Of a stretch of DNA of 64,000 nucleotides, positions 14,909 through 52,253 are shown in pieces. How positions within the stretch are numbered: the first letter of the stretch is position 1; the number at the start of each line of letters is the position of its first letter. The notes under the pieces are model-generated. The model ran no database searches, had not been told where the DNA came from, and worked only from the letters and a program-made list of their open reading frames with translations. The position numbers were made by a program, and so were the translations under genes. The stretch comes from Halarcobacter sp. (GTDB lineage Bacteria; Campylobacterota; Campylobacteria; Campylobacterales; Arcobacteraceae): positions 2,336,001 to 2,400,000 of the forward strand of contig OY781089.1 in assembly GCA_963676565.1 (NCBI GenBank), given 5' to 3'.

Positions 14909-15184
14909 ATGAACAAAGCTGAATTTATTGATGCAGTTGCAGCAAAAGCTGGTTTATCTAAAAAAGATGCTAAAGGTGCAGTTGACGCTGTATTAGATAC
15001 AATTACTGAGACTTTAGTAAAAAAAGAAACTGTTAGTTTCATCGGGTTTGGTACTTTTAGTACTGCTGATAGAGCTGAGAGAACTGCAAAAGTTCCTGGA
15101 ACAGACAAAACTGTTAAAGTTCCAGCTACAACTGTAGCAAAATTCAAAGTTGGTAAAGCTTTAAAAGAAGCAGTAGCTAAGTAA
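14909..15184 (+). CDS. hup: DNA-binding protein HU
   Basis: MNKAEFIDAVA...GFGTFS...KFKVGKALKEAV; AAGGAG RBS. Confidence 0.96.
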   Translation: MNKAEFIDAVAAKAGLSKKDAKGAVDAVLDTITETLVKKETVSFIGFGTFSTADRAERTAKVPGTDKTVKVPATTVAKFKVGKALKEAVAK

Positions 15185-15323: not shown

Positions 15324-15365
15324 GCCGCTATGGTGAAATTGGTAAACACGCCGGATTCAAAATCC
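15324..15365 (+). pseudogene. 5' half of host tRNA-Leu(CAA), broken by island insertion (attL)
   Basis: GCCGCTA TG GTG AAATTGGTAAA CAC G CCGGA TTCAAAA TCC followed by unrelated sequence; joins perfectly with 52254-52309. Confidence 0.9.
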
Positions 15366-15426
15366 AATGTTTAATTTCACTAGGTATTCGGTAATATAGG
15401 ATATAGATAGTTATTTAGAAATACGA

Positions 15427-15450
15427 GGGTATCACTTATGGGTATCACTT
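15427..15450 (+). repeat. Tandem GGGTATCACTT direct repeats, putative integrase arm-type sites (left end)
   Basis: Copies at 15427-15437 and 15440-15450; related copies at 52094 and 52116. Confidence 0.7.
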
Positions 15451-15460
15451 TACTTTTTGT

Positions 15461-15547
15461 GCCGCTATGGAGAAATTGGTAGACTCGAGAGATTCAAAAT
15501 CTCTTTTCAGCAATGAAGTGTCGGTTCGAGTCCGACTAGCGGTACCA
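15461..15547 (+). tRNA. Island-encoded complete tRNA-Leu(CAA)
   Basis: Acceptor GCCGCTA/TAGCGGT, D stem GAG/CTC, anticodon arm AGAGA-TTCAAAA-TCTCT, long variable arm TTCA-GCAA-TGAA, T arm GTCGG-TTCGAGT-CCGAC, discriminator A plus encoded CCA. Confidence 0.93.
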
Positions 15548-15678: not shown

Positions 15679-15987
15679 TTATTGCTCTTTAGTTATAAAC
15701 ATTATAAAAGCTGAAATAATTAGAATTGGTACAACTATATAAACTAAGTATACACCAACATAAGATACAGTTGTAACTGTAACCACTGTAAGTATTAAGC
15801 TCAACCAAAATATCATCGAAGCAGTATTATGAATATTTTTAAAACTTCCAAACCCTAACAATCCTAAGATTGTTAAAGCTGGAATTGAAAAGTATGTAGC
15901 ATATACACTAACATAAGAACCTGAACTTAATATTGCAATATATGAGATAAGAACAATGAAAAAAGCTAATCTTATTTTATCTCTCAT
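15679..15987 (-). CDS. Small four-TM membrane protein with an internal duplication
   Basis: 102 aa, hydrophobic; SYVSVYATYFSIP / SYVGVYLVYIVVP; starts 5 bp after the res stop. Confidence 0.6.
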   Translation of the reverse strand: MRDKIRLAFFIVLISYIAILSSGSYVSVYATYFSIPALTILGLLGFGSFKNIHNTASMIFWLSLILTVVTVTTVSYVGVYLVYIVVPILIISAFIMFITKEQ

Positions 15988-15992
15988 ATTTC

Positions 15993-18938
15993 TTACTTCA
16001 ATATATCACTAATTAACTGTGATAACTCAGGATTGTTAAGTTTAGTTTTGTATTCAACATTTACACCACTTTTTCTTAACTCTTTAAAAAAGGCTTCGGC
16101 ACTTTTAATCTGTAGTTTCTCTTTTGTAGTTATATCATCAAACTTTTCATAGCCTTTAGTTTCAACTACAAAATATAATTCTTTATCATCTTTCGATTCT
16201 ATTACATATCCAAAGTCTGGATTGTAGTTTCTTCCATGAGCTGTAGGAATATTTACTTTTGGTAGTTTTCCAAATACAGTAATTCTTTTATCACTAGATT
16301 CATCTATAGTTATCTTTTCAATAGTACTATCAACTTCCATAAAGTCTTCATTATAGATTGACTTTTCTACTATGTTCTTAGATTTTATTTTATAAGTTTC
16401 AACACCTAAACTACCCTCAGGTATAAATTCTCTAACTTTACCATCTTTGTCAATGAGTGAGGTATTACTAGTCTTTATCTCTTTTAGATCATATGAAATT
16501 TTATTGATTATAGTATCGTAAATAGCACTTACTAATTGCTCTTCAATTTTCTTAAGTGCTAAGTTTTCATTTTGTGGAATCAAATCAAACTTTTCTTTTT
16601 TAATTCCATGTAAAACTTTTGCAACTGTTTGCATACTAAGTTTTGTGTTATTAGATAGTGCTTTAATAAATTCATAAAGAGTAAATATTGAGTGAGTTTC
16701 TACTTTTACAGTATCTTTATCACTATCATACTTTTCACTATCTTCTATATTTTTATCTCTTTTAACAATGATATCTTGCCCACTTATTGTAAAGTTATCA
16801 TCTATCTTCTTTTTAGCCGTATTTATTAATGTAATACTATTAATATCATATTTAACCACAGCATCATAATTTAAATTGTCCCATAAAGCTTTAAACTTTT
16901 TAAAATTCTCTTGATGAATTTTAATTTTACCCTTATCTTTTTTCTTACCACTTCTGTCTTTTGCTTTTACTCTAGTAGATGTTTTAAAGAAGCTATCAAA
17001 ATACTCTTTAAGCTTTTGAGTATCACAACCTTTCATTTCTAAAGACTCCAGTTCTTTTGACTTAGTACTATAATCTTCTTTTGAAATAGTTATTTCACTA
17101 TTACCCTCATCATCAATATCTATGAAACCTTTAGTTTGTAAGTTTGTAAGAATATTAACTGCAGCAAAGGCATTGGCTGCAATTCCATTTTCTGAAATGA
17201 CTTCTGCTGTAAATAATTTTGTTACCTGTTTAATACTATTTTCACTTATCTCTTTTTGAATAGATGTTACAAAGTTTTCTTCTGTCGATGGAACTACTAC
17301 AAAAAGCTCATTTATAAACTCAAAGTTACTGTCTTCTTGAGTAATTCTTTTCCCATCTTGATCTACAGCAAGTCTTAATCCCCTACCTATTTGTTGTAGT
17401 TTTGAAATTTTAGAGTTACTTGGTGCTAATTTACATAGAGTCATTACATTTGGATTATCCCAACCCTCTTGTAAAGCCCATTGTGAAAAAATAAATCTTA
17501 AGTCACTATCAAAAGATAGTAACTCTTCTTTCTTATTTAAAATTAGCTCAATAGCTTCTGCTTCATCGCCCTCTTTTTTAGATTTAGCAAAGTATCCACT
17601 ATGAATTTGGTTTAAACTATCTTTTGTCTTTAGAAGATACTTTTCATAATCTTCATCTAGATCATCTCTTTTTAGTACTTCATTTAGGTTTTTGAGATAT
17701 AACTTTTCAAAAAGTTTTGCTAGTTCACCATTAGTACCCTCATCAGTAAGATACTTATCAACTCTATCTATAAAGAAAAGACAAAGTGCTTTAATATCCA
17801 TTTTAAAAAGCTCTTCTTCTCTTTCAAAATGGTTTTTTATAGCAGTATCAACAATAACCTTTTGCATCTCATCAAGAAGTACACCATAACTTTCACTAAC
17901 TCCTAAAGGTAAAGAGATACCATTGGTAAATAAGGTTTCACTCTTTGTAATCTTTTCAACAACATAACTATTTAGATATTCAATATCTACTTTCTCTCCT
18001 AAATTCTCACCCTTTATAAGTACTGTTTTTTTATTTTTAGAATTGATGTCCTTGTATTCTATAGTTGCTTTATAATCTTTTTGAGTTTTACCTTCTATTT
18101 TAGTAAGAGCAATAGTATGGTTATCTACATTTTCATTTCCAACTGTATCAACTGTAATAGCCTTAACAAGTCCTCTACTAAATGCATCTACACTATCGAG
18201 TATATAAATAAGATTTTTATATTCATCACCTTTAAATGTTGCACCAAACCTTAGTGTAAAAAGAGCATTAAATGCTTTTAAGTATTTTGCAGTTTGTTTA
18301 CCTTCAAATCTATGTGGTTCATCAATTATAATTACAGGTCTAAGATATGAGATAGCTTCCATATAACTTTTTGCACGACCTATAAGGCTTTGCTCTATTT
18401 TACTTTTATTTATATTGTTAGAAGCTTTATTAAATGATTGATACGTTGATACAAGTACTGAAATATTTTGATCACTTGCATTGATATAGTTTAAAACTGT
18501 TTTCTCACTATAGTTATATACTGATATTTGTTTTCCATACTCTTTGACAAAGAACTCTTTTGTAATTTTAATATTTTTAATCGTACCTTGTCGTGTAGGA
18601 TTAGACGGTACTAAGATTATAAACTTTGAAAGTCCATAATCTCGGTTTAATCTATAAATTGATTCTAAAAATGTAAAAGTCTTACCGGTACCAGTTTCCA
18701 TCAATGTATCAACTACAAGTTCATCTTTGATAGATACTTCCCCAATATCTACTTTATTTGACTTTCTAACCTTTTCAATATTATTTACTAAAATACTTTT
18801 AGAATATTCAAGCTCAAAAGACGGGTTACTTTTTCTATTATCATTTTTAGTAAATGATATATTTTTAAATACATCACTTATACTATTTACTGCTTGTTCT
18901 TGATAATCAAGTCTATCAAACTTTATTTTTAAAGACAT
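15993..18938 (-). CDS. res: Type III restriction-modification endonuclease/helicase subunit Res
   Basis: METGTGKT, IIDEPH, LRFGATF, ALQEGWDNPNV, QQIGRGLRL, C-terminal YNPDF...VVETKG. Confidence 0.93.
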   Translation of the reverse strand: MSLKIKFDRLDYQEQAVNSISDVFKNISFTKNDNRKSNPSFELEYSKSILVNNIEKVRKSNKVDIGEVSIKDELVVDTLMETGTGKTFTFLESIYRLNRDYGLSKFIILVPSNPTRQGTIKNIKITKEFFVKEYGKQISVYNYSEKTVLNYINASDQNISVLVSTYQSFNKASNNINKSKIEQSLIGRAKSYMEAISYLRPVIIIDEPHRFEGKQTAKYLKAFNALFTLRFGATFKGDEYKNLIYILDSVDAFSRGLVKAITVDTVGNENVDNHTIALTKIEGKTQKDYKATIEYKDINSKNKKTVLIKGENLGEKVDIEYLNSYVVEKITKSETLFTNGISLPLGVSESYGVLLDEMQKVIVDTAIKNHFEREEELFKMDIKALCLFFIDRVDKYLTDEGTNGELAKLFEKLYLKNLNEVLKRDDLDEDYEKYLLKTKDSLNQIHSGYFAKSKKEGDEAEAIELILNKKEELLSFDSDLRFIFSQWALQEGWDNPNVMTLCKLAPSNSKISKLQQIGRGLRLAVDQDGKRITQEDSNFEFINELFVVVPSTEENFVTSIQKEISENSIKQVTKLFTAEVISENGIAANAFAAVNILTNLQTKGFIDIDDEGNSEITISKEDYSTKSKELESLEMKGCDTQKLKEYFDSFFKTSTRVKAKDRSGKKKDKGKIKIHQENFKKFKALWDNLNYDAVVKYDINSITLINTAKKKIDDNFTISGQDIIVKRDKNIEDSEKYDSDKDTVKVETHSIFTLYEFIKALSNNTKLSMQTVAKVLHGIKKEKFDLIPQNENLALKKIEEQLVSAIYDTIINKISYDLKEIKTSNTSLIDKDGKVREFIPEGSLGVETYKIKSKNIVEKSIYNEDFMEVDSTIEKITIDESSDKRITVFGKLPKVNIPTAHGRNYNPDFGYVIESKDDKELYFVVETKGYEKFDDITTKEKLQIKSAEAFFKELRKSGVNVEYKTKLNNPELSQLISDILK

Positions 18939-18941
18939 TGA

Positions 18942-20810
18942 TTATCCTCTAAATCTTAATTTATCAGGTTTAATACCAAGCTTTGAAATATTACTTTCAA
19001 GCTCTAGAGTAAATTTATCATCACTTATATTTGGAGAATACACAGTAATATACTCACACTCTTTTTTATCTTTTAAAGCATCTACTAATTCATCAGATGT
19101 TATATCTCCAAGAATAAAGGCTACATTTGACGCAAGATAAAGCTTATCTATTATAAGTTCTTCATGTTTTATACTAAAAGGTAATGCTTCTGCAACAAAT
19201 AGATTATAAAGTATCTCTTCATTAGATTCTATATCAGGTTTTTCCATCATAGCTAACAAATCATCTTGACTTACTTCTTCTAGTGATTTTTGGTAGATTT
19301 TTTGTTTTTGATCTTCTACAATTTCAAAAATTCTAAAACCAATATCTCCATCATTCACTTTATTTCCAGCTCGCATTAACCTTTCTGCTGTAATTTCAAA
19401 AATATTAATAGGTTTATTGAGCTTAGTTAAAAAGTCAATTCTTTTCTTTATAGCTTCTTTTTCTTTTTGAGTCAATCCTGTTGTGTATTCTATTTTTTCA
19501 TCTAGTTGAACTAATATAAATTTTACTTTTTCATCTTTACTAAAAACTGCATGACCTGTTGAGCCAGAACCTGCGAAAAAATCTAAAACAATATCATTGT
19601 CTTTTACATTTGCTATATCTATTAAGTTCTTTATTAATTTAGTTGGTTTTGGGTTTGTAAAAATACCTTTTTCATTTTCAAAAAGTTCTGCAAGTTCATC
19701 TGTAGCCTCTTGATTATTTCCAAATTTATCATGAGCCCACCAGTTTGTAGCACATTGTCCTTCTTGTTCTCTCTCAAATTTAAAATACTTTTTTCTAGGA
19801 AAACCATCACCGTTTTTTGTAAAAATTATTCTATTATCATTTTTTAATTCCAAAAATGTTTTTTCTTCTCCCATCCATGTTTCATTAAATTTTTTTCCTG
19901 TAGGACTTTCAATTATATATTTACTACCATCTTGTCCTTCCCCTGCTTTCCAAGGCTTAGAAGCCCATTCACCTCTAGGATCATTGTCTGGATTTGAAAA
20001 TGTACCTGTAAGACCTATTTTACCTACACCAGATTTTTTATATTCCTCTTTATCTTTTGAATACACTAAAATATGTTCTGTAACCAATGCAATCATTTTG
20101 TTTTTATCATTTGGCTGATTAGAACGTCTTCTCCAATGAATATGACCTTCAAAGTTATCTCCACCAAACACTTCATCACAAAGTAATTTAAGTTGAGCAA
20201 CTTCATTATCATCAATTGATATAAAAATTACACCATTATCTTTTAACAAGTCTTTTGCAAGCAAAAGTCTAGGATACATAAAACTAAGCCATCCACTATG
20301 AGTTTTTGCTCCTTGGATATTTTCTATATAATCTATATACTCTTTATCATAACCAAGTTCTTCAAGTGTTTGCTCAGTTGAAGTAGTAAAGTCATCATTG
20401 TAAACAAAACCATCATTTTTAGTGTTATAAGGTGGATCAATATATATCATTTTAATAGATTCAAAGTAGTTTTGACGAAGTATTTTTAAAGCATCAAGGT
20501 TATCACCTTTAATAAGAATATTTTCTGTTTCATTCCAGTTTTTTGAATCACCTTTTAAAGGCTTTAATACTTTATAGTTTTTTTCAAATGCCTTATGATA
20601 AGCCTCTTTTTTACCAACCCAGTTAAGACCATAGCCATCTTCTCTTATTTCTGCTTTTGAAGGGTCTAGACTCATCTGCAATTTTTGAGGGTCAATAACA
20701 TATTTACCATTTTCATCTACAGTTACGGCATGAGGAAACTGTTTTTTTAATAACTCATAATTTATATCATTTATACTTTGTTCTTTTATAACATTAATTT
20801 TTTTATGCAT
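18942..20810 (-). CDS. mod: Type III RM adenine methyltransferase Mod
   Basis: GDNLDALK, IYIDPPYNT, HSGWLSFMYPRL, LDFFAGSGSTG; 3 bp upstream of res. Confidence 0.93.
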   Translation of the reverse strand: MHKKINVIKEQSINDINYELLKKQFPHAVTVDENGKYVIDPQKLQMSLDPSKAEIREDGYGLNWVGKKEAYHKAFEKNYKVLKPLKGDSKNWNETENILIKGDNLDALKILRQNYFESIKMIYIDPPYNTKNDGFVYNDDFTTSTEQTLEELGYDKEYIDYIENIQGAKTHSGWLSFMYPRLLLAKDLLKDNGVIFISIDDNEVAQLKLLCDEVFGGDNFEGHIHWRRRSNQPNDKNKMIALVTEHILVYSKDKEEYKKSGVGKIGLTGTFSNPDNDPRGEWASKPWKAGEGQDGSKYIIESPTGKKFNETWMGEEKTFLELKNDNRIIFTKNGDGFPRKKYFKFEREQEGQCATNWWAHDKFGNNQEATDELAELFENEKGIFTNPKPTKLIKNLIDIANVKDNDIVLDFFAGSGSTGHAVFSKDEKVKFILVQLDEKIEYTTGLTQKEKEAIKKRIDFLTKLNKPINIFEITAERLMRAGNKVNDGDIGFRIFEIVEDQKQKIYQKSLEEVSQDDLLAMMEKPDIESNEEILYNLFVAEALPFSIKHEELIIDKLYLASNVAFILGDITSDELVDALKDKKECEYITVYSPNISDDKFTLELESNISKLGIKPDKLRFRG

Positions 20811-20868
20811 TAATTTTCTTACCTTATATTAAAGTTGATATTGTATTAAAATTCTTGTTATGAGATGA

Positions 20869-21774
20869 TTATAATAAAGCTAATTTATCCATATGTTTGT
20901 TTAAATTAAGTAGAACATCATAAATTTCTTTTGCACAAGAACTATAATCATTTGATTTAATAATTGGTAAACTATTTTCTATTCCTTTAGCTGAATTTCT
21001 AATAGTTATTTTTGTATTTGAATGTGTATCAGACCAAAAAACAACAACTAAAGGAACATCTAAAAGTTTACAAAAATCATCAAGAACACTAAATCTAGTT
21101 GAATCTGCCGTATATTTTTGGATAGACTCTTCCTCTAAGATTCTTCCTTGTGTATCAGACTTATATTCTAAAATAGCTTGAACATTATAGTTTTCATCCA
21201 TTAGAATACCATCAGCATCGCCAGGGAAAGCTATTTTCCATTGATCTCTTGGGATATTTGCCAAGTAATATTCTAATCTTGTAGGAATAAATGTAACTGG
21301 TTTTCGTGTAGCTCTTTTTTCATAATTTTTCAACAGAACTCTTAAACCATCAACATTAATTCTTTTTACTTTTTTTTCTATGTTAATTTTGGGGAATAAT
21401 ATTATTTCCTTCTTTAAAGCATCTTCATCATCTTTTGGATAATTATATGGAGTAAAAACACAAGATAGATCACATTCAAGTTTTTTACTAAATTTTCTAG
21501 CAATATTAAAATCTACTTCTTTATCCATTTCATCAAATAAAATTCGTGCTAAGTCAGCCAACTCTGTATCCTTGACAAGTTCTTGATTATATTCACGACA
21601 ATATAATAATAAAGTTACTCTATTTCCATTTTTAGGAATAACATATCCATCAAAACCAATTATTTTATGCGTTGAATTAATTATTCTCTCCAGTTCTAGT
21701 ATTAAGTTACCTTTAGCAGGTTTTCTTTTATATTTTCTATTATCATGTTCTCTTGTTATTCTTTCATAAAGCAT
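20869..21774 (-). CDS. Putative PD-(D/E)XK nuclease
   Basis: PGDADGIL...AILEYKSD motif; lies inside the defence array. Confidence 0.5.
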   Translation of the reverse strand: MLYERITREHDNRKYKRKPAKGNLILELERIINSTHKIIGFDGYVIPKNGNRVTLLLYCREYNQELVKDTELADLARILFDEMDKEVDFNIARKFSKKLECDLSCVFTPYNYPKDDEDALKKEIILFPKINIEKKVKRINVDGLRVLLKNYEKRATRKPVTFIPTRLEYYLANIPRDQWKIAFPGDADGILMDENYNVQAILEYKSDTQGRILEEESIQKYTADSTRFSVLDDFCKLLDVPLVVVFWSDTHSNTKITIRNSAKGIENSLPIIKSNDYSSCAKEIYDVLLNLNKHMDKLALL

Positions 21775-21791
21775 ATTAAACTTTAACTCCC

Positions 21792-24700
21792 TTATTTGAA
21801 ATATTTATAGCTTCTTTTGTCAAAGGCAGGTCTTGTACCTTCTAAGATATCAACTATACACTGATTGATTTCAGAATCTTCTATAGCTCCACTTTTAACA
21901 GTAAATCTATTATTATCTTGTTTATCAATACTTGCATAAATAATTTGTTCAGCATCTGCAACAACTGCTAGATTGGGATTATGAGTTACCATAATAATCT
22001 GCCGCCTTTTTTTAGCTAACTTTATAAATTTAACAACAATTTTATATACACTCTGATTATCTAAATTATCTTCTGGTTGATCTATAATTAATGGGATTTC
22101 TTCCTTATCAAGCATTAGATAAAATACTAATAGTAATGCACCTTTTTCGCCAGGAGATAACTCAACAAGATTTTTATTATCTAGTTTTAACTCGTAATTA
22201 GGAAGTAGGTAATCTAAATTAAAAAGATACGAATAAAAAGTCTCAATATTATCTACTTGATCAACAATTATTCTAGCTTCACCTTCTCTATCTTCTCTTT
22301 TATCAACTTCTAGATAAGTAATAAGCTCTTCTAGAATATCTTTAAAGTCTTCTTTTAAATCTAGATTCTTTGTTTCTATAATTTCTCTAAGTTTTACTTT
22401 ACCTTCTTCTGAACCATAAAAACTTCCCATTTTGTTTTGCTTAATAAATTTAAAAAAGTCTATCTCAAAACTATTAAGCTTATAAGTTGCATCAATTGCG
22501 ATATTATAATTTGACAGTAATTCTGTATATTGATTTAATGTTATATCAATAGTTTCCTTTAATGATTTAAAGACTTCAACTATTTCGAACTTTTTATCAT
22601 ATATCTCAAGAGATAAGTTAATCCTTTCTTCTCTTTTTTGATTTAAATCACTATCTAAGTCATTTTCAATATATTTTAATTTACCTCTATAATATTTTAA
22701 TGTACCAGTTGTTTCTTCATCACCAATAATTTCTTTACTCTTTTCTTTCCAACTATTAAATTCAGATAGATATTTTCTATACTCCTGTTCTGGTTTAGAT
22801 AACTCTTTTTCTGTAATTGTGATGAACTCTTTTATATTTTCAATATCAACTTTTAATCCTGTTCTTTGATTTTCACTCTCTGATAATATTTCTTTTTTTA
22901 GTCTCGATACCTCTTCATTTTTTGTTTTTATAGTTTCATCAATTTTTGATAAATCACTGTTAATTTTTAGTAAAGCATCAAATTCAAGTGTATACTTATC
23001 TAATAACTCTTGTTTTGATTGCCTAAATTCATTAATTGAAGTAATTAGTCTTTCAAAATCACTCTTTAATGTATTAAGTTCTGAGACTTCTATTAGTCGT
23101 ATCTTAATAGTTTGTTCATAAGATTTTAATATATTTTCTTTTTGTTCTAACTCAGCTTTTTTTTCATTAACACTTTTTATTAATTTTTCTTGTTCTTCAT
23201 CAACTTCACCAGATTGTGAAGGATTAGCTATTTTAATAGGTCTATTTTTTTTATGGTCGAAAAGCTCTTTAAATTTTAATTCATAATTATTTTGTAGAAA
23301 TTCTTTAAAGGATGATAGCTTATGATTTTCTAATTTAATAATCTCTTGATTTATGTTACTTATTTTAGGGATAATTGTTTTAATATCTTCGTTAATGATG
23401 TTAGTTTTTATATCAATTAATTCATCAAAACTATCAGTTCCAAGCTTTTGTTCATCTGGTAAATGTGAAAAAACAACTTTTTTTAAAGCTTTTTCAAATC
23501 CTTCACCTTCTAAATCATTACAAAGCTCTTCAAAATAGTTTTGTGGTAAATATCGTACTCTTTCAGGTCCATTAATATCTGAATTATCGTTTAAGTTAGA
23601 AATAGTTTGCTCTCCAGATTCATAATGTAATGTAGCATTAAAGTTTTCAGCTAACTTTTTCTTTTTAAATTTTCTAGTATTTAAAAAACTAAAGTGATTC
23701 TCTTTGTGACTATTTCCTAGAAGTGCAATAATATCAGACAAAGCACTTTTACCACTTCCTTTATTCCCAATAATTGCTACAAGTTCATTATTTAATTTGA
23801 GGCTTATATCATCAAACCAAATTCCTTTAGAACCATTATAAGTAGCAGTTTTATCTATATTAAGTTCTTTAACATACTTTGTTCTATTATCTTTTACTCT
23901 TTTTAAAACCTCAGGTTCTTCTCCTATAAAAACCCTTTCTTCATATTCATGTATTACTTGCTTTAATCCTTCAAATGTTGGATTCGCTTTAATCCATGTT
24001 AGTGTATTCCCAAGTTTATCTTTATTATCTGATGAACTAAATGAGTGAGCATCACTACAATCTAATAAATATGAATTAACACCCTCATTTTTTAACTTTT
24101 CCTTACTTTTCTCATAGTTTTCTTTACTATCTGTTGAAATAAAAACGAAGTTTGCCTCATTTATTATTGTTTTTTTATCAGTTACTGATCCAGTCCATCT
24201 CATTGCATCCCATTCTGTTTTCCCAACTGCTAACAAAAATTTATCTTTAAAGTAATGAGATTCTAATGCTTTTTTTACTTGATCGTAACTATGAGTAAAA
24301 TTACTAAATCCAACTTTTAAATCTGAACCACTTATTGATACAGTTGCACTTTTTTTGATTTTTTTTCCTAAATCAGATAAAGATTCTTTTGTAATTACTC
24401 CAAAGAACGAGATACTATCTTGATTAAATTCATCAATTGGAGAAAGTGTATAGTTAACTTGTATAGCATTTAAAAATTGACTTTCTATTGTTTCTGCACT
24501 TATTTCATCTGAAAAAATTATATGTAAATTTACTCGCTTCCAAGCTTTATCATCTAGATTACCATACTTATCAATACGAAGTTCAACTACTGGCAGAAAT
24601 AAATCTATATTAGACATCCTTCCTTGACTTTTATATTTCAAAACTTCTTTGTAACCATCCAAAAAAATATAATCATTAATGCCAAGTACTTTTATATCTT

Positions 24701-24836
24701 CAGGTAAACTTTCAATGTCATGAACAAAATTTTCCCAAGCATCACTTGTATCTCCACCATAATGCTGTTCGATTGATTTTGGCGTGTGAACGTGTAAATC
24801 CCATTTTCTCCACTCTGAACCTCTACTAAAACTCAT
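21792..24836 (-). CDS. PHP-domain/ABC-type ATPase fusion (TrlF-like; Ppl-type anti-phage protein)
   Basis: GSEWRKWDLHVHTP, CSDAH, TWIKANPTFEGL, Walker A GNKGSGKS, LSPGEK, IIDQPEDNLDN, VTHNPN. Confidence 0.85.
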   Translation of the reverse strand: MSFSRGSEWRKWDLHVHTPKSIEQHYGGDTSDAWENFVHDIESLPEDIKVLGINDYIFLDGYKEVLKYKSQGRMSNIDLFLPVVELRIDKYGNLDDKAWKRVNLHIIFSDEISAETIESQFLNAIQVNYTLSPIDEFNQDSISFFGVITKESLSDLGKKIKKSATVSISGSDLKVGFSNFTHSYDQVKKALESHYFKDKFLLAVGKTEWDAMRWTGSVTDKKTIINEANFVFISTDSKENYEKSKEKLKNEGVNSYLLDCSDAHSFSSSDNKDKLGNTLTWIKANPTFEGLKQVIHEYEERVFIGEEPEVLKRVKDNRTKYVKELNIDKTATYNGSKGIWFDDISLKLNNELVAIIGNKGSGKSALSDIIALLGNSHKENHFSFLNTRKFKKKKLAENFNATLHYESGEQTISNLNDNSDINGPERVRYLPQNYFEELCNDLEGEGFEKALKKVVFSHLPDEQKLGTDSFDELIDIKTNIINEDIKTIIPKISNINQEIIKLENHKLSSFKEFLQNNYELKFKELFDHKKNRPIKIANPSQSGEVDEEQEKLIKSVNEKKAELEQKENILKSYEQTIKIRLIEVSELNTLKSDFERLITSINEFRQSKQELLDKYTLEFDALLKINSDLSKIDETIKTKNEEVSRLKKEILSESENQRTGLKVDIENIKEFITITEKELSKPEQEYRKYLSEFNSWKEKSKEIIGDEETTGTLKYYRGKLKYIENDLDSDLNQKREERINLSLEIYDKKFEIVEVFKSLKETIDITLNQYTELLSNYNIAIDATYKLNSFEIDFFKFIKQNKMGSFYGSEEGKVKLREIIETKNLDLKEDFKDILEELITYLEVDKREDREGEARIIVDQVDNIETFYSYLFNLDYLLPNYELKLDNKNLVELSPGEKGALLLVFYLMLDKEEIPLIIDQPEDNLDNQSVYKIVVKFIKLAKKRRQIIMVTHNPNLAVVADAEQIIYASIDKQDNNRFTVKSGAIEDSEINQCIVDILEGTRPAFDKRSYKYFK

Positions 24837-24839
24837 TGT

Positions 24840-26855
24840 CTATTCTCCTAAACTTTTTTTATCTTCTAACACATCCATCATAGAACCATCTACTAAAACC
24901 GTATCTAACTCTTTTTTAGGTTTAATATTTGACACTTTCTTTAACATGGTTACTTGACTTATCAAATTACCACGCCCACCACTAAGCTTTTTAAATGCTT
25001 CATCATAGTTAGTTCTAGCAGTTTCAAGTCCTTTATCTACTTTCTTTAAATCATCTATAAATCCATGGAACTTTTTATATAGTTCTTCTGCCCTTTTATA
25101 CACATCTGCAATATTCTGTGCTTGTCTTTCATATCTCCACGTATTTTCAACTGCTCTTAATGCTACAAGAAGTGTAGTAGGACTAACTAATATAATCTTT
25201 TGTTTAAAGGCTTCATCGTATAAATTAACATCATTATCTAGTGCTAAAAGTAAAGCTCCTTCTATTGGCACAAACATAAATATAAAGTCTAAACTATTTA
25301 CATTTTGTAAATCTTCATACTTTTTATTTGCAAGCCCTTTGATATGATCTTTTACAGATTTAATATGATTCTTAAGATATATTTGTTTAAGACTATCATC
25401 TTCTTCTGCCATATAATCATTATAAGCTGTAAGTGATGTCTTCGCATCTATAATAATATGTCTATTGTCAGGTAAATACACAATTACATCAGGTCTGAAA
25501 GGTTTATTTTCATCATCTTTTAAACTAACTTCTCTTTTAAATTCATGTCCTTCTCTTAGCCCTGAACTCTCAAGTACTTTTTCAAGTACCATTTCACCCC
25601 ATTTACCTTGCTTCTTACTATCACTTCTTAGTGCATTTGTAAGGTTATGAGCTTCTGCACTCATTTTTTGATTTAGTTCTTTTAGTGTTTTTAGTTCTGC
25701 AGAAAGTAGACTTCTATCTTTTGCTTCTTTATCATATACATCTTCAACTTTCTTTTTAAAATCTATAAGCTGTGCTTTCATAGGATTTAAAATTAACCCT
25801 AAATCTTTTTGATTTTGTTCACTAAATTTTTTACTATTATCAGTGAAAATTTTGGTTGCTACATTTTCAAATTCCAGTTTTAATTTTTCTTCACTATTAT
25901 GTAATATTTGTAATTTCTCTTCTATAGCTTTTTTTTGTTCTTCAAGTTGAGTTTGCAATTGAGATATAGTAGCATTATCTTTAGTTACTTGAACTTGTAA
26001 CTCTTTTTTATCATCTGTTAATGTATTAATTGTTTGTTTTAGATCACTGATATATGATTCTTTATCAGATAATATTTTTTTAGTATTTTGTACACTTTCA
26101 TTTACTTTTGTTTCTAATTCAGATATCTCTGATTTATATTTCTTTATCTGTTCGTTATAATCTGAATTAGTTGATTTTAAAGTTTGACTTTCATCTTTTA
26201 ACTCTTCAATTCTTTTATTTAAAGAAGTAGACAGTTCTGTATTTTTTTCTTTTTGCTCTTCAAATGAAGTTTTATATTTTGATAAGTCTTCTTTTAATTG
26301 TCCTATTTCTAAAGACTTACTTTCATTTAACTCTTTCAACTGTATATTTTCATTTTTTAACTCTTCAATTCGTTTATTCAAAGAGCTAGATAACTCAATA
26401 TTCTTTTCTTTTTGTTCTTCAAACGAAGTTCTATATTTTGATAAATTTTCTTTCAATTGCCCTATCTCTAAAGACTTATTTTCCTCAGAATCTTTTAACT
26501 GTATATTTTCATTTTTTAAATCATCAATTCTTTCAGTTTGTGACTTTTCAAAGGCATTATATTTATTTATCTGCTCATCGAGTAAAGCTTTTGTTTTTGT
26601 CAAATCTTCTTTAAATTGATTTGATTCTTGCTTTTTTTCCTCTAGCTGTTTAGAAGATTCATTGTATAAATCTTTTATATTATTAGCGTTATTAAGACTC
26701 ACAGTTAACTCTGAGTTTTTTATCTCTAAATTTTGTCTATCATTTGATAAATCTTTAATCTCAGTATTCTTATCTTTAACTGTTTTATAAAATAATAATC
26801 CTCCTATAACTAATATAGCTGAAAACAATGCTACCAGTACTTCAAAGTTTTCCAT
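24840..26855 (-). CDS. rmuC: RmuC family protein with N-terminal TM and expanded coiled coil
   Basis: QGKWGEMVLE, RPDVIVYLP, IIDAK, FMFVPIE, SPTTLLVALR, GGRGNL. Confidence 0.85.
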   Translation of the reverse strand: MENFEVLVALFSAILVIGGLLFYKTVKDKNTEIKDLSNDRQNLEIKNSELTVSLNNANNIKDLYNESSKQLEEKKQESNQFKEDLTKTKALLDEQINKYNAFEKSQTERIDDLKNENIQLKDSEENKSLEIGQLKENLSKYRTSFEEQKEKNIELSSSLNKRIEELKNENIQLKELNESKSLEIGQLKEDLSKYKTSFEEQKEKNTELSTSLNKRIEELKDESQTLKSTNSDYNEQIKKYKSEISELETKVNESVQNTKKILSDKESYISDLKQTINTLTDDKKELQVQVTKDNATISQLQTQLEEQKKAIEEKLQILHNSEEKLKLEFENVATKIFTDNSKKFSEQNQKDLGLILNPMKAQLIDFKKKVEDVYDKEAKDRSLLSAELKTLKELNQKMSAEAHNLTNALRSDSKKQGKWGEMVLEKVLESSGLREGHEFKREVSLKDDENKPFRPDVIVYLPDNRHIIIDAKTSLTAYNDYMAEEDDSLKQIYLKNHIKSVKDHIKGLANKKYEDLQNVNSLDFIFMFVPIEGALLLALDNDVNLYDEAFKQKIILVSPTTLLVALRAVENTWRYERQAQNIADVYKRAEELYKKFHGFIDDLKKVDKGLETARTNYDEAFKKLSGGRGNLISQVTMLKKVSNIKPKKELDTVLVDGSMMDVLEDKKSLGE
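26195..26530 (-). repeat. 159-bp (53-aa) tandem repeat inside rmuC, just over two copies
   Basis: RIDDLKNENIQLK...SLEIGQLKENLSKYRTSFEEQKEKN / RIEELKNENIQLK...SLEIGQLKEDLSKYKTSFEEQKEKN; anchors at 26202, 26361, 26520. Confidence 0.85.
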
Positions 26856-26890
26856 TAATATCTCCTAATTATAAATTATCACATTATATT

Positions 26891-26924
26891 TTAAGTAAGT
26901 CACCTAGTTAGGTGACTTACTTAA
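26891..26924. repeat. 16-bp perfect inverted repeat with 2-nt spacer at the jetD/rmuC junction
   Basis: TTAAGTAAGTCACCTA-GT-TAGGTGACTTACTTAA. Confidence 0.85.
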
Positions 26925-27788
26925 GTATTCTTGTTCAAGTGTGATTTTTCGATTTTTTATAAAATCTATAAGTTCCTTTAATTTTACATCATTTTTTGAG
27001 TCAATATTTAAATATCTTGTTTGGTTGGAATAGTCTTTTTTATAATTCTTTTCTACCATTATTTTATAAATATTTTCAGGAATCAAAAAAGAATGTGATC
27101 TGCAATGTCTAAGCCTAGGTAATATAGAGTTAAGATAAATATTTATACCCGCTAAATCAAAATCACCAAAATGAATATACTCTCCTTTAAAGGACTCCAG
27201 CCATTTGTATTGGAAGGAAGTCTTAAATTCACTAAGAGACAAAAATATATATTGTTTATCTTGATTAAAAAGGTGTCTATATCTATTTATAAACCAAACA
27301 ACTTGAGGATTTTCTACACCTACTAAAACAATATCATTATCCAATTCTAATTTAGTACTATAATGCATAAATAAGCCTGTACCTTCTATAGGATAGATAT
27401 ATTGTTTTACTCCATTTAAAGTAACTTCTATCTTCTCAAATACACTAATCATAAGTCCGTTAAAGCTTTTTGATTCTATTCTTTTAGTATCTGAGAATTT
27501 TTCAGCGACTTCATCACGACTTTTTGATTTTTCACTTTCTTCAATAAAATAGTCTATATCTTCTATACAATTAATGTTATAACCATTTGATTTTAGAACT
27601 GCAAATAAAGTATTTATATCTTTTAAATACATACATTGTGGCTTTCCATCTATATCTATTGCATTACACTCTTTAAGTGAATTTATAAGTTTTTGAGAAG
27701 ATATCTCTTTTTTTAATATATATTCATCTTTTAAAAGTTTTTTTAGTGCTTCAAAATTTCTTGTATTAATATTTATAGCCATTACCAT
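26904..27788 (-). CDS. jetD: Wadjet JetD/MksG-like Toprim nuclease
   Basis: VGVENP, YIHFGDFDLAGINIY and LEQE Toprim-like motifs; follows the SMC gene. Confidence 0.75.
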   Translation of the reverse strand: MVMAININTRNFEALKKLLKDEYILKKEISSQKLINSLKECNAIDIDGKPQCMYLKDINTLFAVLKSNGYNINCIEDIDYFIEESEKSKSRDEVAEKFSDTKRIESKSFNGLMISVFEKIEVTLNGVKQYIYPIEGTGLFMHYSTKLELDNDIVLVGVENPQVVWFINRYRHLFNQDKQYIFLSLSEFKTSFQYKWLESFKGEYIHFGDFDLAGINIYLNSILPRLRHCRSHSFLIPENIYKIMVEKNYKKDYSNQTRYLNIDSKNDVKLKELIDFIKNRKITLEQEYLSKSPN

Positions 27789-30700
27789 TCATCCATAGCA
27801 TTTTGTGCATCTATAAGACTTAGCTCAACATGATTTGAGCTTTCTCTTGTTCCCATATATATTCTAGGATATGCATCAATAATATCGTCATCATTTGCAG
27901 CAGTTCCATTGATAAATACAAAATCCAATAATTTTGCATAATTCATAAGTTCAGTAAAGTAATCTGCAGATATCTGACCAATTTCATCAATAATACAATG
28001 ATATTTTATGTTCTCGCTATTGGCAAATTTCTTTGTAACCATACGTAATAATGTTATATAAATAATTGCTTTTACCATTATTGATGTTCCGTTACTACCT
28101 ATATTATCTAATGTTGCAATACCTTTTGTAACCTGGTTGTTTTCACTTACATCAAAAGTTAATGTACTTATATCTGAAACAGTAATATTCTTTTTAAATG
28201 TTCTTTCTAATATTACTTGAAGATCTTGAGCTATTTTTACTAATTCATCTTTTACTGATTCTGATCTTTCGCTATTTTCATAGCCAATAAGCATATTTGC
28301 ACTTAACATATCACCTATGTTTTCAATTCTACTGACAATTTCATCATTACCTATATTTCTGAAATTTAACTTGATAAAATCAATCACTGTAATATTTGTA
28401 ATACCATCATTAATAGTTGAATTAATTTTATTTACATCTTTTACAATACTATCAAATGTGCCTTTGATATGGGATATTCTACTAACAGCATCATTTATAG
28501 TTTCAATTAGAATATGTAACTGTAAGCTTGTTCCTTCAATATCAAATTTTGTTTTGATAAAATCTGAGTATGATTTTGCAATTACAATATACTGTTCGAT
28601 ATTATCATCGAAACTATTTATATCAGATTTTGATTTGAGCTTCATCATATTATCACTAGGAATATCATCAACAATTCTTCTAGTATCAAGTTTAATTGTT
28701 TTTTCTTTTTCATCTTGTTGTATTTCAAGAGTTTTGTATCTCTCTAAAAGAGTAATATTTTGTTTAGAGTTCAAGAGAGATACAACCTCTTTTTCGATAT
28801 AAGAATCATAGTTTATATTAGTAGTTATTTCAAATTGAGATAATGCATTTTTAAAATCTTTAAATGATCTGGCATGAGATTTCCAAATATTTATAGAATC
28901 CTCTAATTGCTTTAACACACCACCAATAACTTTTAATTCTTTTTCATAATAATCTTTTTCTTCAGTTCTTTGTTTATCTGTTTGCACTAACTGATCTTTT
29001 AATAAAGGGATTTGATTATAATTAGGTAATACTTCATCATCATATCTTTTAACTAAACCTTTATTATCTTGTATCTCTTTTATAGTTTTTGTTAATTGTT
29101 TAATTGTCTTATTATAAGAATCAAGTTCATCAGTATCAATATTCTGACTTCTTTTAATTTCATTATATATTTCATGTATCTTTTTATCTGACTCGTTGAC
29201 AAGGTTTTCATATTTTTTATTTATCGATTTAATGCTATTTTTACACAAAGAAAATTGAGCATTTAAATCCTTTTCTTTCCCCTCATATTTTGCATTTATC
29301 TCTTGAATAAAAGTATCTTTTTTTCTTTTCTTAGTAGAGATATATTCTATTAAAGTAGTTAAGCTTTCTCTGTCTTTTAAAAGTTGTTTCTTTGTTTCAA
29401 TTATTCTTTTATCATTTTCATCTTTTAAACGTGCTATCTCTTCATCTAATCTTCTTTGCTCATTTGCTATTTTTATCTCATAATCTTTAATTTTAGGACT
29501 TAAGTCATAAATTTCTCTTGACTTTTCTTTTATTGATTTTTTAAATTTATTAGATGAAGATTTTAGATTATCTTCAAGTCTTTTATATCTTATCTTATGA
29601 TTTGACACTAACTCATTTAGTTGTTTTTGAAGTGCTGTTTTATTATTCTCAAGGGTTTCTATATCATATTTACTTGCCATTGTTTCAATATCACCGTCAA
29701 TCACTAAACCATAAAAATTATCATTGCTAGTTTCAAGCGAAAACTTAAAGTTTTTTTCTTCAAATAAAATTTCATCATTTGCTATAGCTAAAATCTTTCT
29801 TTTATTTGGAACTTCATTTTTATTTAGAAAACCAAAAAGGTTGTTTTTTCCAATGTCTAATTTTTTATTAACTAACTCTATTTTCTCTTTTAGCTTACTT
29901 TTCTTATTGTTATATTGGCTAACTTCATCTTGAATTTTTTTATTAAGCTCTTCAAAACTAGCATCCCTTTGTTTTTCAAGTTCTAACTTTTCACTCTCTA
30001 ATACTTCTATACTTGATTCAATCGAACCTTTTAAAGTTATTAATCTATTAATCTCTTTTTCAAATTTAATAGAAGCATTACTCTCTAACTTTTGAGATGG
30101 TAATAATCTTAAAGTAGTCTCATCTTCTGATATTTTTTTATCTAATTGGTTATACTTAGTTGTTTTTAGTTCTATTTCTTCGTCAAATGCATTTATACTA
30201 TTTTTAAGCTCAACCTCTTTGTCCTTTGATAATTGTAGTATTTCTTCTGCAAGTTGTTCTTTTTTTTCTTCTAGTTGTATTTTTTCTTCTTCTTTTTTAC
30301 TATTAAAAGAAATTCGTTCTTTTTGTTTTTCTGTTTCCTCTTTAATATCAAGTTCTTCAAGGCTACTAGAAATTGCAACTACTTTAATTTCTAGATTTTT
30401 TTTCTGCTCTTCATATTTATTTTGTTTACTATCTTCTTCTATTAATCTTTCAATTTTATATTCATCAATAAATTTATTGTATGTAGTTTCATTACTTTTG
30501 ATAGTTTTATTAAGTTCTGCAATTTGATCGTTGTAATTAGTAGACTTTTTATCCCATTCATTCGACAACTTTTCACTTTTTTCAGTCTCTATCTTCTCTT
30601 GAGCATATAAATCTAGCTGTTTTGTTTCTATTACTTCACTTATTATATCTTTATTATAAGACATTGTTTCAAGTTCAAAAACAGTTTTATCTATTTCACT

Positions 30701-31489
30701 ACATAATGCTCTATAAGAAACAATAGTTTCATCAAGTTCTAATATTTTTTCTCTTCTGTCTTTTATTAATTCAAAATGTTCTACATTTTTCAAGGCTTCA
30801 TCTAACTTATGTTTAAAACTTGATATATCTAAAGAATACTCTTTTTCTCCAATTAAAGAAATAAGCATATCTTTAATACCTCTATCTCTAACTGAAGAAT
30901 TTGAATATATATTAAATAAATATTTACCAAATAAACTTGCAGACTCTTCACTATCATATAGTGAAAAATCTAACTCAGATTTATCTTTACTTGGTAACAT
31001 TTTATAACTTTTTCTACACATCATTTTTCTAAAAGTAGGAACAGTTTCACTTTTGTAATATGTTAAACCATGTTTTAAACAATTTGACAAAATCTCTTTT
31101 AGATTTAAACTTCGATTGTTCTCATCGAGATATAAAATACTTATGTCTTCTTGAAAATTATGTATATTTATAAAAATATGTTTGATTGATTTTCCATCTT
31201 CTTTACTTAATAAAAGAAGATTCTTTCCTATCTTATTTTCATAAACATAAATCAAATGAGAGTAACTACCTTCAATATGCCAATCATAAAAAGTTTTCTC
31301 TTTTGGAATAGGTCTTGTTTTAAATTTATCCATTGTATAAAAGTAACATATAGCACTCATAACAGTTGTTTTACCTACACCAGAACTACCAAGTAGCAAA
31401 GTAAAATCATCAATGATTATTTTTTCATGAGGGAAGTGTCCACTATTTATAAATCTTAACTCTTTTAAGCCTAATTGATTATAACTCAT
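27782..31489 (-). CDS. jetC: Wadjet JetC/MksB-like SMC ATPase
   Basis: Walker A GSSGVGKTT, long coiled coil, GSNGT signature, Walker B IIDEIG; ATG at 31489 has a GAGG RBS. Confidence 0.8.
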   Translation of the reverse strand: MSYNQLGLKELRFINSGHFPHEKIIIDDFTLLLGSSGVGKTTVMSAICYFYTMDKFKTRPIPKEKTFYDWHIEGSYSHLIYVYENKIGKNLLLLSKEDGKSIKHIFINIHNFQEDISILYLDENNRSLNLKEILSNCLKHGLTYYKSETVPTFRKMMCRKSYKMLPSKDKSELDFSLYDSEESASLFGKYLFNIYSNSSVRDRGIKDMLISLIGEKEYSLDISSFKHKLDEALKNVEHFELIKDRREKILELDETIVSYRALCSEIDKTVFELETMSYNKDIISEVIETKQLDLYAQEKIETEKSEKLSNEWDKKSTNYNDQIAELNKTIKSNETTYNKFIDEYKIERLIEEDSKQNKYEEQKKNLEIKVVAISSSLEELDIKEETEKQKERISFNSKKEEEKIQLEEKKEQLAEEILQLSKDKEVELKNSINAFDEEIELKTTKYNQLDKKISEDETTLRLLPSQKLESNASIKFEKEINRLITLKGSIESSIEVLESEKLELEKQRDASFEELNKKIQDEVSQYNNKKSKLKEKIELVNKKLDIGKNNLFGFLNKNEVPNKRKILAIANDEILFEEKNFKFSLETSNDNFYGLVIDGDIETMASKYDIETLENNKTALQKQLNELVSNHKIRYKRLEDNLKSSSNKFKKSIKEKSREIYDLSPKIKDYEIKIANEQRRLDEEIARLKDENDKRIIETKKQLLKDRESLTTLIEYISTKKRKKDTFIQEINAKYEGKEKDLNAQFSLCKNSIKSINKKYENLVNESDKKIHEIYNEIKRSQNIDTDELDSYNKTIKQLTKTIKEIQDNKGLVKRYDDEVLPNYNQIPLLKDQLVQTDKQRTEEKDYYEKELKVIGGVLKQLEDSINIWKSHARSFKDFKNALSQFEITTNINYDSYIEKEVVSLLNSKQNITLLERYKTLEIQQDEKEKTIKLDTRRIVDDIPSDNMMKLKSKSDINSFDDNIEQYIVIAKSYSDFIKTKFDIEGTSLQLHILIETINDAVSRISHIKGTFDSIVKDVNKINSTINDGITNITVIDFIKLNFRNIGNDEIVSRIENIGDMLSANMLIGYENSERSESVKDELVKIAQDLQVILERTFKKNITVSDISTLTFDVSENNQVTKGIATLDNIGSNGTSIMVKAIIYITLLRMVTKKFANSENIKYHCIIDEIGQISADYFTELMNYAKLLDFVFINGTAANDDDIIDAYPRIYMGTRESSNHVELSLIDAQNAMDEW

Positions 31490-32045
31490 ATTCAACATCC
31501 TCAATAATATCTTCTACGAATTTAAATGATCTTAGTATTAAAAATTCTTCTTCCCTATTACCAATACTTTCAGCAAAACCATCATTTTTTAATCTTGTGA
31601 TGATTGAATCTATAGCTTCACGATTAGTTGACCTTTTCTTTAAAAAACTCATTTTATCAATCATTGCTTTTAATTCTATATCTCCATTTAACCTAGTTTC
31701 CATGTCACTTGCACTATACGGACCTGCATCTGATGAACCAATATCGCTATTTAACAATTTTAAAAATCTATATATATCAATATAGTCAACATAACCATTA
31801 GAATAAGGTTTGGGAATATTTTCATAAATATCAATAATAAAATAAAAAAAGCCTGTATCTGATCTTAATGTATATCCTATGATGCTATAATAATCTTTTA
31901 CATCTTGCTTGTATTGGTATATAAAATTGTATGCTTCTTTAATTTTATAATCTGAACTATTTTCATTAATGAATTTACCATTTACTCTACACTCTTCAAT
32001 CACCTGGAAAATATCTTTGTATTCTAGTAATTGCAATAAATCCAA
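31479..32045 (-). CDS. jetB: Wadjet JetB/MksE-like subunit
   Basis: 188 aa, NGKFI and DYYSIIGYTL...FFYF; positioned between kleisin-like and SMC genes. Confidence 0.65.
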   Translation of the reverse strand: MDLLQLLEYKDIFQVIEECRVNGKFINENSSDYKIKEAYNFIYQYKQDVKDYYSIIGYTLRSDTGFFYFIIDIYENIPKPYSNGYVDYIDIYRFLKLLNSDIGSSDAGPYSASDMETRLNGDIELKAMIDKMSFLKKRSTNREAIDSIITRLKNDGFAESIGNREEEFLILRSFKFVEDIIEDVEYEL

Positions 32046-32046
32046 T

Positions 32047-33225
32047 TTATCCCCTTTTTATAATATGAGGTAATCTAATACCTTTATGCTCTACAATATC
32101 GTCTTTAGATATTGATAAAAACTTGTTATACTGTAAAGTAAGCCTAATGAAAATTGATAAAAATTGCTTTTTATCTAAATCTTTCTGTTTCAAAAATGAT
32201 GCTAAATCTAAATCCTGCTTAATAAAGCTTTTATAAACTTTTTTTGTACTTAATATAACTTTTGTTTTTGAAACTTTTTTATCATTAGACTTTATTGGAT
32301 TAGGTCTTGCTTCATTCTTTTCATTTTTGTCTTCTTTGGATTTATATTGTTCTTTTGCAATACTCACTATTGATTCTATTAGTACTTCGTCATTCATATA
32401 TTGTGGTCTTACTTTTATTGGATCAGCTATGTTTTCTAACCTTGTTACAACCGACTCAATATTGCTCTTTTCAAATAATTCTCCATTTACTTTCATCTTA
32501 TACAAATGATTTAATTTTTCTATCTTTTTTGCTTCTTTTTCAATATGCATTAAATATTTTGATAATTCATTTAATGTTTTTCTAATATTCTCTCTTACAT
32601 CATGTATATAGTGAGCTAATTGATTAGTATGAAAAGAAATTGATTCATTACCTAGCTCATCTACAAAATATGACTTATACTCTATTAGAAATTTATCAGT
32701 ATTACTAACAGCTTCAGACAATGCTGTTAAATCAGCTTTACAATCATATAGATTAGCTTTTTTAACTTCAAAGTTTGTTTCTGCTTTAAACTTCATCTCT
32801 TTTTCATTAAGTGATTCAATTACTCTATAAATTATCTTTTTAATACTTCTCAATGTAGAGTTTATTCTTTTTATTTCATTTGAATAAAACTGATTATCTT
32901 TTCTTTTAATATTAATATCACGAATTAACTTCTTAATATTTTTTTGCTTTTCCTCAATATCTTTGATATTAACATCTGTATAAGTTTTTAAATGTGCGTT
33001 ATAATCATCACTAAGTAATAAAGAATAAGAATACTCATCATAGTCAAATACATTGAAATCAATAAGTTTTTCAATAACTAAAGATAAATCTTTATTTTTT
33101 TTAGCATCATAATACGGCATATTCTCGACATATTCAATGCTACCTTTAAAATGAGCATCAATAATTGCTTCTTTTGCTTCATTTTGTGCTTTAATAAATT
33201 CTTTAGGATTGATATTTGTTGTCAT
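32047..33225 (-). CDS. jetA: Wadjet JetA/MksF-like kleisin
   Basis: 392-aa helical protein, first of four coupled genes ending in SMC and Toprim. Confidence 0.6.
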   Translation of the reverse strand: MTTNINPKEFIKAQNEAKEAIIDAHFKGSIEYVENMPYYDAKKNKDLSLVIEKLIDFNVFDYDEYSYSLLLSDDYNAHLKTYTDVNIKDIEEKQKNIKKLIRDINIKRKDNQFYSNEIKRINSTLRSIKKIIYRVIESLNEKEMKFKAETNFEVKKANLYDCKADLTALSEAVSNTDKFLIEYKSYFVDELGNESISFHTNQLAHYIHDVRENIRKTLNELSKYLMHIEKEAKKIEKLNHLYKMKVNGELFEKSNIESVVTRLENIADPIKVRPQYMNDEVLIESIVSIAKEQYKSKEDKNEKNEARPNPIKSNDKKVSKTKVILSTKKVYKSFIKQDLDLASFLKQKDLDKKQFLSIFIRLTLQYNKFLSISKDDIVEHKGIRLPHIIKRG

Positions 33226-33627
33226 CTATACTCTTTATTCATATTTTGATAAAATCATATTACAAGTAAATAATAGATTTAGGTTACTCACTTTTTTTAT
33301 ATATTTTTCAATTCTCACTTTTTAATTCATCCAGTCTAATAACATAAAGCATATATCTTTGAATAGTAGGAATTAGTTCTAGCAAATTATCTTCATTTTT
33401 AATAATAATCTTTAAACTAAGGAAATTTGATACATTGAAAATCTCTATTTAAATTATTCCTTATTAATATAATTATTTTATATTATTTTAACTTATATTT
33501 TAATAACTATATTATATATCCTAACTATTATTTATCTATAAGAATTGTTAAATTTCAATACTTCAATAATGTCTATATTCAGAATTAAGAAATTTATAAC
33601 AATTTATTATTTCTTTATTCCATTCAA

Positions 33628-34503: not shown

Positions 34504-34523
34504 AAGTTAATACCAATTTTTGC

Positions 34524-35523: not shown

Positions 35524-35535
35524 CTATTAAATCTC

Positions 35536-49383: not shown

Positions 49384-49396
49384 AGATAGTTCCTAA

Positions 49397-52093: not shown

Positions 52094-52127
52094 GGGTATC
52101 AATTTTAACTAATATGGGTATCAACTT
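52094..52127 (+). repeat. Two GGGTATCA direct repeats, putative arm-type sites (right end)
   Basis: GGGTATCAATT at 52094; GGGTATCAACTT at 52116. Confidence 0.7.
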
Positions 52128-52253
52128 ACTAATATATACCTATATTTAGTTGTACACATTTGTATATAATTTAAAATAAAAAAGATGCTATTAGTAAGCT
52201 AAATAAGGGCTATTTGTATGTTTTTATATACAGGTATACTCAAAATAGTAATT

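Follow-up and report, generated by a model that had tools for sequence, protein, structure and literature searches.

An island of about 37 kb was identified that has split the host's gene for tRNA-Leu(CAA) within its anticodon loop, has not rebuilt it, and carries a whole tRNA-Leu(CAA) of its own (referred to here as the spare). The spare keeps the anticodon loop but differs from the integration target at one diagnostic stem pair, 29:41, and nearly all related islands defined by their arm repeats differ at the same position. Through this pair, selection probably maintains the spare as an inferior attB for integrases of the family that its carrier uses. The feature is real. The splitting and replacing of a tRNA gene is known, and for the position-specific recoding of 29:41 no published statement was found in the literature searched. 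The window, meaning the whole stretch of DNA analysed, is 64,000 nucleotides in length, and its features are listed in Table 1. Stem positions are given in the standard tRNA numbering, as 27-31/39-43.

Table 1. Features of the island and its insertion site (positions within the window).
Feature	Position	Strand	Remarks
HU gene	14909..15184	+	Pfam Bac_DNA_binding; host landmark upstream of the tRNA-Leu(CAA) locus
Orphaned host tRNA-Leu(CAA) 5' half	15324..15355	+	B side of attL; stem arm CCGGA
attL core, 13 bp	15353..15365	+	GGA-TTCAAAA-TCC; exact match
7-nt anticodon loop after host 5' half	15356-15362	+	presumed overlap
Island P' arm	15363..15460	+	begins TCCAAT; without tRNA 3' half
11-nt direct repeat pair	15427..15450	+	GGGTATCA motif; presumed arm-type integrase sites
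Island-borne intact tRNA-Leu(CAA) (spare)	15461..15547	+	ARAGORN, Rfam
Anticodon stem-loop of spare	15488..15504	+	AGAGA-TTCAAAA-TCTCT
Diagnostic pair 29:41	15490 / 15502	+	A with T in spare; G-C in attB and attP
Cargo	15679..50657		type III R-M, TrlF/Ppl-like ATPase, RmuC, Mks/condensin-like genes, WYL, SUKH, LHH nuclease, HerA, dynamin-like GTPase, DUF932, Gp157, Rad52, AbiEii pair
Tyrosine integrase, 430 aa	50742..52034	-	open frame; Pfam Phage_integrase
P-arm repeat pair	52094..52127	+	GGGTATCA motif; 159 and 137 bp before core
attR core	52251..52266	+	P half ATTGGA 52251-52256, loop 52257-52263, then host 3' stem start
Orphaned host tRNA-Leu(CAA) 3' half	52264..52309	+	ends in CCA; preceded by loop 52257-52263

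The two host tRNA halves lie 36.9 kb apart, and the 3' half adjoins the start of the integrase gene. When the halves are joined in a script, ARAGORN calls a full tRNA-Leu(CAA) with a CCGGA/TCCGG stem, which is the host attB that the first-pass annotation had proposed. The joined island ends (attP) give no tRNA call and read ATTGGA-loop-TCCAAT, a perfect 6-bp inverted repeat, again as that annotation had reconstructed. Both attL and attR retain the full 13-bp core. Exact copies of the core exist in the window only at 15353 and 52254, and these two (attL and attR) are the only copies in the 3.34 Mb genome; the inner 11-mer occurs 20 times genome-wide. The crossover presumably fell within the 7-nt anticodon loop. 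The sequence after the attL loop contains no variable arm or T arm, attP does not contain the displaced tRNA 3' half, and neither attL nor attR rebuilds the tRNA. A single tRNA is called by ARAGORN in the window. The right arm opens with 7 nucleotides identical to those with which TTGGA-type alleles begin their 3' half, so the perfect attP inverted repeat may partly be a relic of a tRNA stem.

An empty site is present in a genome of the same genus (G129), with an intact tRNA, an identical HU distance (174), and the same genes on its flanks. The host 5' half in the window is identical to the 5' half of this intact gene, and the HU-tRNA gene order recurs in many family genomes. Sequencing run X3 has a contig that is identical to the host side but for a single difference, and a further piece that contains the host 3' half; these contigs are weakly suggestive of an empty site in a near-identical strain. 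Neither an attP joint nor a joint of the spare with an att site was found in the contigs of four sequencing runs, where contigs drop rare forms and the stretch compared was attL only.

The integrase contains the invariant catalytic residues R245, K272, H340, R343, H367, and Y376 and matches the lambda and Tn1549 integrases by profile and by fold. A PDB search with the single sequence was empty, and the profile search gave matches. Two long strands and a helix are predicted by the model at residues 42-95. The GGGTATCA motif is also found behind attL in G033, L163, L168, G034, G513, and G514, and P-arm spacings of 159 and 137-138 bp are also found in the three closest relatives (L305, L032, and L033). 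Paired repeats on both arms with conserved spacing are as expected of arm-type sites, and these are presumed to be such sites. A third GGGTATCA pair is located within the integrase gene on the minus strand (51189-51216) in the opposite orientation. The L032 and L033 integrases, the nearest ones with fully resolved sites, are 76-77% identical and their islands have the same P half and arm motif, but their tRNA is rebuilt. Because restoring and replacing elements alternate on the integrase tree, the switch between the two probably happened more than once. Related integrases also occur in or beside a protein-coding gene (L306 in G116, L307 in G131) and at the 3' half of tRNA-Leu(TAG) (L070 and L071).

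The cargo is mostly defence-like, and no capsid, terminase, head, or tail family was found by Pfam among the 31 proteins scanned. No homology to this island was found in the stretches from G141, G130, G018, G135, and G127. The island in G033 (L299) shares the DUF932/Gp157/Rad52 block and neighbouring genes with window positions 41640-47180, and its arm motif is identical.

The spare folds into a cloverleaf (z -2.5) and is the sole intact tRNA-Leu(CAA) among 51 genes called in this single-contig genome. Its stem-loop has the sequence and the position within the tRNA reported in the first-pass annotation. That annotation also held that the stem removes the core match, which is overstated: two mismatches to the 13-bp core are present, but 11 of 13 bases match, including the entire 7-nt loop. 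The spare is located 95 bp inside attL, directly behind the arm sites. It shares 86% identity with the host 5' half over 43 nucleotides, and there are further differences in the D stem and in the variable arm. Relative to the spare, the host halves form direct repeats at distances of 137 bp and 37 kb. A promoter scan gave no plus-strand site above chance, and the spare may be transcribed either from a promoter of its own or from that of the host.

UUG makes up 6.6% of Leu codons, so the penalty for loss of tRNA-Leu(CAA) may be mild, and it is doubtful that the spare is essential after integration. The CAA pattern is without a match in 21 of 151 family genomes, which is no proof of absence. Eight genomes that are 99-100% complete (G071, G092, G105, G110, G002, G038, G044, and G060) lack a match to either Leu-CAA pattern, and natural loss of the tRNA in these is possible. 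A further ARAGORN call, located outside the window, is a tRNA-Thr(GGT) that has a 184-nucleotide insert at position 38 (G000:C1:3098591-3098866); the insert may be an intron, the gene may be one more case of a split tRNA, or the call may be wrong.

The resident tRNA closest to the spare once the stem is masked is that of G069 (96%); its stem, AGGGA, departs from that of the spare solely at 29:41. It follows that pairs 27 and 28 are not rewritten host pairs; judged by sequence, the spare is a borrowed allele from another lineage, and these two pairs came with the donor. Of the rewritten stem described in the first-pass annotation, the specific change at 29:41 is what stands. Single-pair steps of this kind are AGGGA to AGAGA here, TTGGA to TTTGA in G135, and TGCGA to TGTGA in G130/G018. 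TTTGA is absent from the 18 resident stems.

A host 5' half followed by a whole spare is present in at least 11 of 151 family genomes, this genome included. In G140 a half lies at a contig end, and in G034 the half is decayed. Order-wide, the half-plus-spare pattern was matched in 5 of 401 genomes, all of the same family, using a narrow pattern that does not exclude occurrence elsewhere; it had 0 matches among viral contigs. A metagenome scan added 84 loci. From the 95 loci examined, 5 tandem intact tRNAs, 1 chance match, and 6 T-arm/variable-arm cuts were dropped, and the 83 kept are anticodon-loop host/spare pairs. Loci cut in the T loop or variable arm and followed by a whole spare (L105, L111, L122, L140, L146, and L180) are a separate replacement family, and five of the six keep GGA.

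Position 29 of host and spare differs at 30 of 36 loci whose right arm starts with TC. When islands are grouped by arm repeat, 30 of 31 depart from their host target there (GTACAYA 19/19, GGTATCA 4/4, GGACRC 4/4, GTGCCTC 2/2, and TGGTGACT 1/2). The null model used genus-weighted resident frequencies, with spares clustered with the stem masked. At 90% clustering, 12.5 of 13 lineages differ at position 29 against 6.0 expected (P about 4e-5); at 85%, 5.9 of 6 against 2.9 (P 0.01); and at 80%, 3.8 of 4 against 1.9 (P 0.058). For all TC loci, P is 0.0045 and, at 85% clustering, 0.099; for all low-GC loci it is 0.0044 and 0.073. These P values overstate the case because the lineages are related and because the five arm motifs were chosen after the data had been viewed; the lineages are also few (4-6 deep ones), with kin not independent. 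The recoding that the first-pass annotation looked for in related islands is thus seen at 29:41 in arm-defined islands, but positions 24-28 of these islands show no excess at any clustering level, and loci whose right arm starts otherwise than with TC differ at position 29 in only 17 of 47, which is the null expectation, although this null is not apt for them. An earlier grouping (low GC, TC arm, and L112 dropped by eye; 12/12 clusters) was post hoc and was replaced by the arm repeats.

In the GGTATCA arm family, to which this island belongs, 19 of the 20 att half-sites that could be read have G at position 29 (counted by hand, decayed G034 excluded), and 0 of the 5 spares do; the backbones of these spares are of at least three kinds. 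Hosts with C29 or T29 are accompanied by a spare with a different base at 5 of 5 such loci. Pair 30:40 is altered in four TC-group spares, and the loop itself, within the presumed overlap, is altered in six other spares.

These observations can be placed in a mechanism in which a lambda-like tyrosine integrase would cross over in the 7-nt anticodon loop and bind stem bases on both of its flanks, mainly those at the three positions closest to the loop (GGA/TCC). According to work cited in bioRxiv 2020.11.02.365908, ICEAfe1 integration required 19 bp of the anticodon stem-loop. Since the host gene is not rebuilt, the island would supply a whole tRNA-Leu(CAA) just inside attL. Having the same loop, the spare would be a second potential attB inside the element; if attP or attR recombined with it, the island would be split or deleted and the sole CAA tRNA destroyed. 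Tandem integration into a plasmid's own tRNA gene is a speculation found in PMC10865867. Pair 29:41 would be the free pair nearest to the crossover, because the two inner stem pairs are fixed in tRNA-Leu(CAA); all 114 residents carry the inner GA. Elements would persist if their spare carries a non-target pair at this position, here A-U for G-C, whether the difference arose on the island itself or was retained through sorting of donor alleles. The change would lower, and not abolish, recognition by the island's own integrase and by relatives with the same core.

Beyond the anatomy, the sole-copy status, and the position-specific pattern observed across relatives, we infer the crossover point, a reading of position 29 by the integrase, and the selection behind the change. 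Self-avoidance and avoidance of competitors are indistinguishable by sequence alone. As attL and attR keep the full core, competitors would still be admitted to the locus, and only the working tRNA would be shielded.

Several observations run against a strict form of this mechanism. The layout at L186 (G127; 880-1100 and 13930-14250) is nested, with a host 5' half, spare A, and then 13 kb of cargo without an integrase match. It is followed by a second island-type 5' half with T29 and its own arm-like spacer, core-fused to the host 3' half. L187 (G031) has the same nested layout, with its second island-type 5' half loop-fused to a chimeric 3' half. The 16 kb covered for G127 gave no match to an integrase. 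The G127 hybrid would be the expected product of attR-by-spare recombination, and a deletion at the 11-bp microhomology would fit equally. G127 shows this hazard to exist and a recoded tRNA to remain open to joining. The claim that the change stops recombination with the island's own tRNA is therefore too absolute, as a T29 tRNA was joined in G127, and what agrees with it is the pattern at 29:41. One integrase type (95-99% identical; G018, G130, and G104) entered both G29 and C29 hosts, so position 29 is not strictly read. Many non-TC islands keep GGA, and the stem arm of L106/L118 is identical to that of the host. In G141, the right arm of attP starts with TCT, the same as its spare. The AGAGA tRNA lineage is associated with integrases only 38-40% identical. 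The L156 and L159 spares are identical to the resident tRNAs of G077 and G133.

An allele borrowed without any selection on the core is the alternative that comes nearest, although we consider it unlikely. The mismatch would then be a by-product of a few ancient captures and of targets biased toward G29. This fits the variable resident pool, the finding of AGAGA in the G024 resident and in the second chromosomal copy of G067, the two spares equal to resident alleles, and the small number of deep lineages. However, the null model already draws on this variable pool and is exceeded at position 29 only, single-pair changes arose on several backbones, and the C29 and T29 hosts also receive a spare with a different base.

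It is much less probable that the change protects the RNA and not the DNA, by evading a tRNA nuclease or toxin or by tuning UUG decoding. Phage tRNAs have been proposed to evade anticodon nucleases (PMC10264068), and among the products of the island are an AbiEii nucleotidyltransferase and an LHH nuclease. Yet the loop is unchanged in this island, the cargo is not common to the five other stretches fetched (G141, G130, G018, G135, and G127), and the new base at position 29 varies (T 14, C 10, and A 6 of 31 arm-defined spares). Because it varies, the base is defined by differing from the target and has no fixed identity. Equally improbable is a general divergence selected to limit homologous recombination of the spare with the host halves. 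In its favour are the 86% identity to the host 5' half and the differences in the D stem and variable arm, but the excess is confined to position 29, and the G135 5' halves differ at only 2 of 32 nucleotides, one of which is position 29.

The resident tRNA-Leu(CAA) genes have 18 stems, with G at position 29 in 69, A in 22, T in 13, and C in 10 of 114. A rule that all residents carry G29 was considered and rejected, as 45 of 114 do not. By visual reading, 3 stems are seen for Leu-TAA, all G29, among the tRNA-like ones of the 150 matches listed, and 3 for Leu-TAG, which, one chance match aside, are all A29. The hypervariable Leu-CAA stems suggest turnover driven by these islands; alternatively, they reflect relaxed constraint on a minor tRNA, for which the low share of UUG among Leu codons speaks. 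The second tRNA-Leu(CAA) in G067 (L197, 3148-3234) is 1 nucleotide from that of the island and lies 1.3 kb behind an intact resident; an attR for this copy was not found. In G034 (L274/L321), the sole match is an intact T29 tRNA; it stands behind a host 5' half that has decayed, GGTATCA arm repeats are present, and a host 3' half was not found. By its sequence, G034 appears to be a spare on the way to becoming a resident gene. Among 116 intact copies, relics of arm repeats lay upstream of the resident in a single one (G034), so wide domestication is without support.

A more tentative extension, to which we give somewhat less than even weight, is that 29:41 acts as a specificity switch in a continuing island cycle of allele replacement. 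Each island family would deliver a tRNA allele poorly read by its own integrase. The island would then decay, and the allele would stay as the host gene (as in G034) and immunise the site. Integrases reading the new base would invade and bring the next allele (as with G018 and L156, where C29 hosts are split). If true, such a cycle would account for the 18 stems of Leu-CAA against 3 each in Leu-TAG and, among the matches listed, Leu-TAA.

Should the proposed role of 29:41 hold, the pair would be a specificity determinant for integrases of a so far uncharacterised family, and a host tRNA gene would have had its sequence shaped by a mobile element. A design rule for integration vectors that are obliged to carry a complementing tRNA would follow as well. 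Annotation tools that seek a long duplicated tRNA 3' end would be expected to miss such islands.

Classical gene-restoring anticodon-loop tRNA islands (the sublocation scheme of Williams 2002, as cited in bioRxiv 2020.11.02.365908), of which HP1 is a further example, have the tRNA 3' half within attP, and the gene is made whole again at attL, as in L032 and L033. This island, in contrast, keeps at most 7 nucleotides resembling a 3' half. Common to both is a symmetric core around the 7-nt loop. The Sinorhizobium meliloti prophages described in PMC11476347 inactivate tRNA-Leu(UAG) and carry a foreign copy that is 80.6% identical to that of the host. They have in common with this island a host tRNA that is cut centrally and replaced by a foreign, element-borne allele, and the authors note tRNA diversification. 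Those hosts are Alphaproteobacteria, and the text available contains no position-level analysis of the core.

Judged by its sequence, the island works like the tRNA-dependent lysogeny of PMC10865867 (Guerrero-Bustamante and Hatfull 2024) but is not a phage; the comparison refers to the available portions of that paper, which describes actinobacteriophages, among them Fionnbharth, cluster L, and Gaia at tRNA-Leu-CAA. Both systems have a tyrosine integrase, arm sites, a core within a tRNA gene that is not rebuilt (8-17 bp in those phages, 13 bp here), an element-borne tRNA of the same isotype, and restoring as well as non-restoring elements among close integrase relatives. Unlike those phages, the island has no phage structural genes among the 31 proteins scanned, its host belongs to Campylobacterota, and its spare lies 95 bp inside attL, right behind the arm sites. 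The portions available speculate that the tRNA may be an attB and contain no analysis of a phage tRNA altered to escape the integrase. How an element avoids its own tRNA gene as a target was left open in that description, and for this question the island family yields a prediction of a single base pair.
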